NCBI RefSeq assembly: GCF_003334335.1
Contig: NZ_QOWQ01000186.1
DNA length: 460 nt
Strand: one strand, 5' to 3'
Source of the DNA: Escherichia coli
Lineage (GTDB): Bacteria > Pseudomonadota > Gammaproteobacteria > Enterobacterales > Enterobacteriaceae
The notes beneath the pieces are model-generated. The model saw only the letters and a program-made list of their open reading frames with translations. It was not told the DNA's origin and searched no databases. Both the position numbers and the translations under genes were made by a program. Shown piece by piece: positions 1 to 460 of this stretch. Positions within the stretch are counted from its first letter, which is position 1; the number at the start of each line of letters is the position of its first letter.

Positions 1-120
1 GCGCTGGCGTGCTGGGGAATTGACAGATAAGCAGAATATTTTGCTGAAAAATGCGGTTTGCTCACACGGACGGATAACACGAAATCCTGCGAACTGACAA
101 AAACTAAGTGAATAAAAGTA

Positions 121-159
121 AAAACCCCGTTTGTTGGCTGCAAGCGGGGTTTTGTGTTT
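121..159 (+). terminator. Rho-independent (intrinsic) terminator hairpin, possibly bidirectional
   Basis: Seen directly: 121-129 AAAACCCCG is the exact reverse complement of 145-153 CGGGGTTTT, giving a 9-bp stem with a CCCCG/CGGGG core. The 15-nt loop (130-144) can pair further (T131-A143, T132-A142, G133-C141 plus G-U wobbles), leaving a ~5-nt apical loop. The stem is followed by the T-rich run TTTTGTGTTT (150-159). An A-rich tract (112-124) precedes the stem, so the reverse strand also sees a U-rich tail. Sits between the upstream region and the ORF1 ribosome-binding site. Confidence 0.75.
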
Positions 160-176
160 CTGACCTTGGATAAGGC

Positions 177-183
177 AAGGGAG
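177..183 (+). promoter_or_regulatory. Shine-Dalgarno sequence for ORF1 (AAGGGAG)
   Basis: Purine-rich AAGGGAG lies 3-6 nt upstream of ATG 187, complementary to the 16S rRNA 3' end. A second SD-like TAAGG is at 171-175. Confidence 0.5.
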
Positions 184-186
184 AAC

Positions 187-369
187 ATGGAAAAGTATAA
201 ACGAATTCTGTTGAGGTTGACTATGAAAAACGGCCTTGAACTGAAAGCGCCTGTAACTGATGACATCAGCAGAGCACTGGCTTTTGCCATTAAGTGGGTG
301 GCGGTCGGTGTTGCTGTGTCCCCGATGCTGTATGGGCTGGCAAAACTGGTCATTGCGTTGAAATCGTGA
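187..369 (+). CDS. Hypothetical small basic protein (60 aa) with C-terminal hydrophobic, putative transmembrane segment
   Basis: ATG 187 to TGA 367-369, in frame with the supplied 154-369 ORF. Product: MEKYKRILLRLTMKNGLELKAPVTDDISRALAFAIKWVAVGVAVSPMLYGLAKLVIALKS. The N-terminal ~29 residues are charged and basic; residues ~30-58 are predominantly hydrophobic and long enough for one membrane span. Ten K/R versus four D/E. The frame contains no TTA/CTA/TCA codons and uses CTG frequently. A strong SD lies upstream and a tightly linked downstream gene follows. Start is uncertain: the in-frame ATG 223 (SD-like GAGG at 214-216) would give a 48-aa product. No homolog recognised from memory. Confidence 0.6.
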   Translation: MEKYKRILLRLTMKNGLELKAPVTDDISRALAFAIKWVAVGVAVSPMLYGLAKLVIALKS

Positions 370-377
370 AGGGAGGA
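369..377 (+). promoter_or_regulatory. Shine-Dalgarno sequence for ORF2 (AAGGGAGGA)
   Basis: GGAGG core at 372-376, 7 nt upstream of ATG 384, which is near-optimal spacing. It begins on the last base of the ORF1 stop codon (TGA 367-369), indicating operon organisation and possible translational coupling. Confidence 0.65.
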
Positions 378-383
378 TTAAGC

Positions 384-460
384 ATGTCAGACAAACTCAT
401 AACGCTGGCGAAGATCCTCTGTGTAATTGTCGGCATTTCATTTTCACTAATGCTGGTTGC
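384..460 (+). CDS. Hypothetical membrane protein, N-terminal fragment (3' end beyond window)
   Basis: ATG 384 in frame 3, open to the window end; the supplied ORF track presumably omits it because no stop is reached. Translation: MSDKLITLAKILCVIVGISFSLMLV..., a short polar N-terminus (MSDK) followed by an uninterrupted hydrophobic stretch typical of a signal-anchor or first transmembrane helix. Strong SD with ideal spacing. In-frame GTG 366 and TTG 354 are possible alternative starts but lack an SD. Confidence 0.6.
   Translation, partial: MSDKLITLAKILCVIVGISFSLMLV

Follow-up and report, generated by a model that had tools for sequence, protein, structure and literature searches.

The 460-nucleotide (nt) stretch of Escherichia coli DNA analyzed here (contig NZ_QOWQ01000186.1 of RefSeq assembly GCF_003334335.1; hereafter the window) encodes an RNA hairpin between the endolysin gene R and two small open reading frames (ORFs), ORF1 and ORF2, and this hairpin (121–153, plus strand) probably acts as a Rho-independent (intrinsic) terminator within a lambdoid prophage, in the late operon that Q antiterminates. 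The terminator signal itself, its conservation, its strand bias, its operon context and the lack of a plus-strand promoter in the window are all observed.

The hairpin and its late-operon setting

The hairpin joins the arms AAAACCCCGTTTGT (121–134) and GCAAGCGGGGTTTT (140–153) across a TGGCT loop (135–139), giving 14 base pairs, six of them G–C, and a loop of five nt, and it is the single site that the terminator scan returned in the window. Folding of 110–165 as RNA yielded −21.6 kcal/mol, compared with −10.75 ± 2.93 kcal/mol in 200 dinucleotide shuffles (z −3.70), none of which was as stable. The stem runs into the U-tract UUUUGUGUUU (150–159, plus strand), whose first four residues also pair with the A-tract at 121–124; in the DNA, TTTT at 150–153 is followed by G, T, G and then TTT up to 159, with GTGTTTC directly 3′ of the stem, and the tail score is 4.85. 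A d'Aubenton-Carafa-type terminator score reached 33.4 on the plus strand and 12.7 on the minus strand. Hairpins in the zone next to the pR′-like promoter of Escherichia phage PhiR12_1, a carrier of this sequence described below, score 25–33, and the window hairpin is equally high. The attributes of an intrinsic terminator are present in the form of a G+C-rich stem-loop, a U-rich tract 3′ of the stem and a structure that is kept in relatives. An earlier reading made from the sequence alone had placed a strong terminator about 20 nt upstream of the ORF1 Shine–Dalgarno (SD) sequence, and both its stability and its geometry were borne out, the 14-bp hairpin being followed by a T-tract that ends at 159 and an SD that begins at 177.

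The same reading held that this spacing leaves no room for a dedicated promoter. A promoter scan of the whole window returned no sigma-70-like site on the plus strand, and the ORF1 SD (AAGGGAG, 177–183, plus strand; ATG at 187–189) starts 18 nt past the T-tract. The narrower statement that no hexamer within 150–176 combines A at its second position with T at its sixth needs correction, as GACCTT (162–167) has both, yet this hexamer agrees with TATAAT in only 2 of 6 bases and lacks a usable −35 element, and the conclusion that ORF1 has no dedicated promoter stands. Because no plus-strand promoter is present, ORF1 and ORF2 would be reached only by polymerase crossing the hairpin from upstream, which upholds the earlier proposal of transcription by read-through. 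The gap from the R stop codon to ORF1 measures 156 nt, and the hairpin starts 91 nt after that stop. A fold of 25–200 further predicts a second hairpin (154–188, plus strand) directly 3′ of the terminator, in which CCUUG (164–168) would pair with CAAGG (176–180) and cover the first four bases of the ORF1 SD; an alternative pairing of the CCUU with AAGG at 172–175 would free the SD.

The window originates from the late operon of a lambdoid E. coli prophage resembling Shiga toxin (Stx) phages, and this assignment is solid. It is 100% identical to PhiR12_1 and to chromosomal prophages in several E. coli strains. Among 5426 complete E. coli genomes, 2134 match all or part of it, and so do 236 records of phages, the majority of them Stx-converting. 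PhiR12_1 carries on one strand, in order, NinG, Q, a 2-kb gene, two small genes, holin S, DUF1327, lysozyme R, the gap covered by the window, ORF1, ORF2, Rz with embedded Rz1, the terminase genes Nu1 and A, and head genes; in the coordinates of its locus (L001), holin S lies at 7449–7664, R at 8497–9030 and the hairpin at 9121–9153. The Q gene, 5.1 kb upstream of the hairpin, matches Pfam Phage_antitermQ (E 1.2e-25), and its end is overlapped by a pR′-like promoter (TTGACA-18-CATAAT, 11/12; L001 3959–3988), likewise at a distance of 5.1 kb. Downstream of this promoter lie an Rfam STnc100 match (143 bits; L001 4313–4518) and several terminator-like hairpins. The presence of Q, the pR′-like promoter, these hairpins and STnc100 upstream makes the late-operon context solid and places the promoter-proximal terminator zone about 5 kb upstream of the window hairpin. 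With R ending at window position 30 and the terminase starting 1.4 kb downstream, the flanks hold both the Q-like antiterminator gene and the phage late genes to which the sequence-only reading had pointed.

A second carrier of the identical window is a chromosomal prophage (L002) with a DUF1133 Q-like protein and HK97-type portal and protease–capsid genes, in which an STnc100 match (3867–4072) again follows the Q-like gene on the same strand. PhiR12_1 combines a PF06530 Q with lambda-type Nu1/A/W/B head genes. Because the same 460 nt are found in two such unlike phage backbones, we conclude that the lysis module moves freely. Across the late stretch of PhiR12_1, from Q to the head–tail genes (L001 3400–18460), 31 terminator-like sites were counted on the two strands together, where shuffled sequence gave 15.0 ± 3.5. 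Strong ones on the sense strand precede holin S and follow both R and the capsid gene, those of the capsid region being at L001 16623–16644 and 17709–17729. This excess fits an operon that is crossed by antiterminated polymerase alone.

Conservation of the hairpin was assessed in 176 regions downstream of close R homologues, taken from IMG/VR contigs and phage records. The hairpin is found at a fixed offset, 91–124 nt after the R stop, in about 120 of the 176 loci, and it is this recurrence at the same offset that argues for more than a chance structure. Loci with an antirepressor gene between R and Rz (for example Sakai Sp5) diverge just 5′ of the hairpin and have in nearly the same place, at 110–128, a terminator-like hairpin of another sequence, AGGCACCGTAATGGTGCCT with TTTGTCATTT after it. 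A second hairpin type, also 33 nt long, keeps the same base (A4C4G/CG4T4) beneath a different self-complementary top, GGCTGCTGGAACAGTCC. In phiSTEC1575-Stx2k it belongs to a cassette, unrelated to the lysis cassette of the window, that consists of an M15 peptidase endolysin, a 93-aa gene, the hairpin, an ORF1-like gene and a lipoprotein. Since such a hairpin precedes small membrane-protein genes in two unrelated cassettes, these genes are the suggested target of gating.

The pattern of substitution likewise speaks for a maintained element. In an ungapped alignment of 20 variants of both hairpin types, 90.4% of cells pair, the U·G of pair 10–24 has become G–C in 6 of the 20 (a compensatory change), and none of 500 shuffles matched the observed pairing or covariation score. 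RNA of the plus strand folds better than RNA of the minus strand in 30 of 30 sequence variants (mean difference −5.1 kcal/mol), because T130·G144 and T134·G140 form wobble pairs that become A·C mismatches on the minus strand.

Lambda-type Q, loaded at pR′, renders polymerase resistant to terminators far downstream. Because Q confers this resistance, an internal terminator could block unmodified polymerase and be ignored by the Q-modified enzyme. In the model that we favor, polymerase without the Q modification, having leaked through the pR′-proximal terminators or started at internal promoters, would stop at the hairpin, while Q-modified polymerase from pR′ would read through it; ORF1, ORF2, Rz/Rz1 and the packaging genes beyond would then be made solely in late lytic growth. 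We infer that termination in vivo and passage of Q-modified polymerase are both most likely. The hairpin would in addition bound, on the left, a slot that holds variable cargo and separates R from the spanin genes Rz/Rz1.

Several points weigh against this model. The U-tract is interrupted, and the A-tract on the 5′ side gives the hairpin a resemblance to a minus-strand terminator as well, reflected in the score of 12.7 on that strand. Support from covariation is real but thin and comes mainly from one pair, because most stem positions are invariant. About 12 copies carry a C·A mismatch in the G–C core, which weakens the fold to about −11 to −12 kcal/mol. Finally, the selective benefit is not obvious, because a terminator placed after S and R gives the lysogen no protection from leaky holin or endolysin.

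Genes flanking the hairpin and the R–Rz cargo slot

The window opens with the 3′ end of the signal-anchor-release (SAR) endolysin gene R (1–30, plus strand; stop TAA at 28–30), which carries the annotation lysozyme R in both PhiR12_1 and E. coli S19-651 and matches a PHROG endolysin group (E 1.1e-63). The R N-terminus resembles a SAR domain and the PhiR12_1 holin is annotated as class II, and the two constitute a pinholin and SAR-endolysin pairing as in Stx phages, where this pairing occurs in 99% (PMC8136144).

On the other side of the hairpin, ORF1 (187–369, plus strand) is an annotated coding sequence for a 60-aa protein with a basic N-terminus and one C-terminal membrane segment (hydropathy peak 1.88, residues 38–56), and it falls into PHROG 1115, 4493 and 3246, all of them function-unknown groups. 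ORF2 (384–460 and on to 515 beyond the window, plus strand), also annotated, encodes 43 aa with one membrane segment behind an SD of its own (GGGAGG, 371–376), belongs to the function-unknown group PHROG 4906, and has a stop codon that overlaps the Rz start (GTGA). Neither ORF1 nor ORF2 matched a family in Pfam or NCBIfam, and these searches gave no function.

Homology among the phages ends at the end of the T-tract, and what follows is one of several small-membrane-protein cargos. ORF1 with ORF2 occupies 36 loci; a 45-aa ORF of PHROG 6632 that overlaps the Rz start, and that is unannotated in TL-2011c and many Stx2 phages, occupies 54; three small ORFs are found at 17 loci in phages of the 569R3 type; and the Sakai Sp4 and GER2 types have a 50-aa ORF1-like protein with an IRWW end. 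Every cargo type begins with a strong SD about 18–45 nt past the T-tract. The small single-pass membrane proteins of this R–Rz slot belong to families that are exchanged in modular fashion, and the last protein in the slot often has an IRWW end and a gene that overlaps the Rz start codon (for example window 187–460; L003 2680–2830; L006 612–1077; L130 6615–6790, minus strand).

In the K-12 prophage Qin the R and Rz homologues, rrrQ and rzpQ, overlap, and in the window's phage R and Rz are separated by 496 nt. This comparison identifies the block formed by the R trailer (31–120), the hairpin and the ORFs as an insertion. The block is also lower in G+C (trailer 0.436, ORF1 0.475, ORF2 0.470) than R (0.551) and Rz (0.553). 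Because rrrQ and rzpQ overlap, K-12 has no homologous site for published 3′-end maps. A 126-aa minus-strand ORF that extends from ORF1 across hairpin and trailer into the R end (L001 8973–9353) is unannotated and probably spurious; it was rejected because length changes in a hypervariable patch of the trailer and cargo swaps break the frame in relatives.

Possible alternative roles for the hairpin and the R trailer

An unlikely candidate is a hairpin that works in both directions, also or even mainly ending a cis-antisense RNA of about 80 nt that would silence ORF1 in lysogens in the manner of a type I toxin–antitoxin system, a role that is compatible with termination of the late operon. The only promoter-like site in the window, TAGTCA-18-TATACT, lies on the minus strand (194–223) in the first ORF1 codons. 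An RNA started from it at about 187 would be antisense to the ORF1 start and SD and would end at the hairpin, followed on that strand by the tail UUUUUACUUUUAUU. This tail is a good U-tract and the predicted RNA folds at z −3.2, yet none of the 30 variants forms as stable a hairpin on the minus strand as on the plus strand, and its score of 12.7 there compares with 33.4 on the late-operon strand.

The promoter-like element is not confined to one cargo. Minus-strand elements stand at a similar place in every cargo type, 34 nt from the T-tract in the ORF1 type, at 33–37 nt as the extended −10 TGCTAAAAT in the unrelated PHROG 6632 cargo, and as TGGACA-18-TATACT (10/12) in the Sp4/GER2/phiSTEC1575 type; the plus strand gave no matches, and shuffled segments put the chance of such a match at 5–10% per 100 nt and strand. 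In addition, ORF1 codons 2–4 (AAG TAT AAA, K-Y-K; 190–198), which coincide with the minus-strand −10 hexamer TATACT, are nucleotide-invariant in 33 unique ORF1-family genes of two subfamilies that are about 50% identical, and synonymous diversity in subfamily B is near 0 in codons 1–14 and 0.3–0.6 beyond. Both hexamers nonetheless fall in conserved codons (K-Y-K and D-F-S-K) and may be by-products of coding or translation-initiation constraint.

There is precedent for such a transcript in PasA, AsxR and AgvB, small RNAs (sRNAs) that are convergent with late operons (PMC4104026; PMC8550237 Table S6). The homologous Sakai Sp4 site (about 1,184,830), however, has no peak in Table S2 of PMC4104026, which covers uninduced cells and top orphan peaks only, and the 63 orphan Hfq peaks listed for Sakai all lie outside R–Rz gaps. 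Nor did the antisense candidate match an Rfam family: with E values of up to 10 allowed, the window gave sub-threshold chance matches alone, the best being the rimP leader on the minus strand with 27.5 bits against a gathering score of 47, and Rfam searches of the related loci found nothing at the hairpin site.

Somewhat less likely still is a combined arrangement in which a small regulatory module would accompany lysis-cassette membrane-protein genes and use the hairpin as a terminator in both directions. The hairpin would block unmodified polymerase and also end the antisense RNA of about 80 nt, which would mask the ribosome-binding site, with ORF1-type proteins as toxins or timing factors under two independent locks, so that a phage late operon would contain something akin to a type I toxin–antitoxin system.

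We are more doubtful about a further reading, in which trailer and hairpin together (31–159) would form a functional RNA, either an Hfq-binding regulator derived from the 3′ untranslated region and equipped with a variable 20-nt targeting patch, or, more simply, a stem-loop that stabilizes the S–R mRNA. The trailer is partitioned on the plus strand. Conserved non-coding block A, GCAGAATATTTTGCTGAAAAAT (31–52; diversity 0.019), is identical in 153 of the 176 loci; a hypervariable patch follows (53–72; diversity 0.285) that is nevertheless fixed in length, being exactly 20 nt in 70 of 75 variants; and conserved block B with an A-rich tract (73–120; diversity 0.087) leads up to the hairpin. Measured on 59 unique sequences retrieved via the R protein, diversity in 31–52 and 73–120 is thus 2 to 10 times below that of the synonymous (4-fold) sites of R, at 0.186, although recombination between mosaic modules could also have produced this conservation. 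Beside the hairpin and its U tail lie five A-R-N triplets (AAU AAA AGU AAA AAC, 111–125), which in sequence resemble an Hfq site, but no Hfq peak is listed here among the top orphan peaks of uninduced Sakai cells. Precedents exist in StxS, PasD and STnc100, which originate at late-operon terminators (PMC7547250; bioRxiv 10.64898/2026.05.13.724894). For the window hairpin, little terminated RNA is to be expected in lytic growth, because Q-modified polymerase would rarely stop.

Structure prediction lends the trailer no further weight. Besides the lack of a promoter, no consensus fold emerged: the hypervariable patch forms no consistent hairpin and folds no better than shuffles (mean z −0.4), the trailer alone (28–120; 31–120 as a leader) folds no better than chance (z −1.4), and RNAalifold on 65 variants found no consensus structure (energy −1.3). 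The same blocks do recur after the last lysis gene of a different, M15-type cassette, which speaks for a unit with a function of its own. About 85 variants of the trailer sequence are contained in loci L211–L315, with nearly invariant blocks at 31–52 and 73–91 around the 20-nt patch. In the cassette of M15 peptidase endolysin, ORF1-like gene and lipoprotein, the blocks follow the last gene (L060 1560–1624, minus strand), where the predicted fold is a hairpin of 60 nt, closed by these blocks, with about −20 kcal/mol. A long hairpin closing 31–91 was considered as a conserved trailer structure and rejected, as it is well predicted solely in these other-cassette relatives.

It is quite improbable that hairpin and trailer have no transcriptional role and serve as a conserved linker, a crossover point for exchange of the R–Rz cargo. 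Such a role would account for phage homology breaking exactly at the T-tract end or just 5′ of the hairpin, and for a trailer that is about 95% identical in about 200 Stx phages while the cargo differs. It would not account for the strand-biased G·U pairs, the compensatory change and the substitute terminator-like hairpin, which argue for selection on RNA structure, and the hairpin is also found without the trailer. Finally, the placement of hairpin and U-tract directly upstream of an SD, with no promoter between, might suggest promoter-proximal control before the lysis genes, either by a counterpart of tR′ or by a leader of the attenuator or riboswitch kind, but this is very improbable given that the hairpin lies 5.1 kb past the pR′-like promoter and after S and R, that the STnc100 leader match is elsewhere, and that no Rfam match or alternative structure was found.

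Relation to known systems and significance

The closest likeness of the terminator that we propose is to the lambda-type late operon of Q, pR′ and tR′, whose organization recurs at the locus: the Q gene has a promoter of constitutive appearance at its end, terminators lie close to that promoter, and the late operon is long and includes lysis and morphogenesis genes. The window hairpin differs from tR′ in standing 5.1 kb downstream, after S and R, within the lysis cassette and between R and Rz/Rz1. It is not close to pR′ or Q, does not precede all late genes and has no leader of the STnc100/StxS/PasD type. Because Q, the pR′-like promoter and STnc100 lie about 5 kb upstream, we regard the hairpin not as tR′ but as an internal terminator. 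The lambdoid late-gene layout that the sequence-only reading had found compatible with the window therefore holds as regards the late operon and fails as regards tR′, with holin S and endolysin R lying upstream of the hairpin. Its suggestion of conditional expression fares similarly. The antitermination setting is present in Q and the pR′-like promoter, and the riboswitch or attenuator variant finds no support, as Rfam matches at threshold, a leader fold and a consensus structure were not found; the intergenic region has no promoter and no conserved aptamer or alternative antiterminator structure.

Late-operon terminators and sRNAs such as StxS, PasD/STnc100 and PasA share with the window a sense hairpin with U-tract, a multicopy presence in prophages of pathogenic E. 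coli and an A-rich tract resembling Hfq sites, but no RNA product is reported at the position of the window hairpin, which matches none of the named prophage sRNAs PasA-D, HnrS, AsxR, AgvB and StxS. PasA was rejected as an identity because its gene, oriented against the late operon, sits between those for the esterase and the holin, and HnrS (EcOnc10-12) because it maps downstream of Rz on the opposite strand. Elsewhere in PhiR12_1, a strong hairpin between a DUF826 gene and holin S (L001 7383–7411) occupies the place described for the PasA/EcOnc51-52 sRNA family, which is antisense to the late operon and has esterase-side genes on one flank and the holin gene on the other. Rfam matches to isrK (76 bits) and C4 antisense RNA (74 bits) lie just upstream of the PhiR12_1 antirepressor gene (L001 1062–1249), and sok adjoins hokD in the chromosomal prophage (Rfam; L002 535–709).

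The cargo has partial parallels of its own. As in type I toxin–antitoxin systems such as hok/sok, ORF1 and ORF2 are small and hydrophobic and the ribosome-binding site could be covered by the candidate antisense RNA, but these systems have no sequence or Rfam relationship to the window. Morons, reportedly described by Juhala et al. in 2000 (see also PMC4104026) as extra genes inserted in lambdoid late operons, classically bring along a promoter of their own as well as a terminator downstream. The trailer and the two ORFs are likewise extra DNA of lower G+C, here between R and Rz, and differ in that the window block has no promoter, has its terminator upstream and has an ORF2 that overlaps the Rz start. 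P2 LysA is an accessory membrane protein of a lysis cassette. The Mu gp25 releasin is likewise a small lysis-cassette membrane protein (PMC9239132). ORF1 and ORF2 resemble these two proteins as small membrane proteins encoded directly after a (SAR) endolysin gene, with no detectable homology.

In summary, the hairpin is an ordinary kind of phage signal in a previously undescribed spot, and in the searchable literature we found no report of a terminator that separates R from Rz in an Stx phage. A terminator inside a Q-antiterminated late operon will be unsurprising to the specialist; its pairing with a membrane-protein slot and the possible antisense promoter merit attention. Should an antisense or trailer RNA be made here, it would be a new regulatory RNA in phages that control Shiga toxin release, possibly together with new lysis-timing or toxin-like proteins. 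If the terminator reading is true, the hairpin would be an extra checkpoint by which, in Stx-type prophages, expression of the distal late genes depends strictly on Q. It marks the left border of an endolysin–spanin cargo slot with unannotated small membrane proteins in many E. coli prophages, and is of use for annotation and for the interpretation of transcriptomes in pathogenic E. coli.

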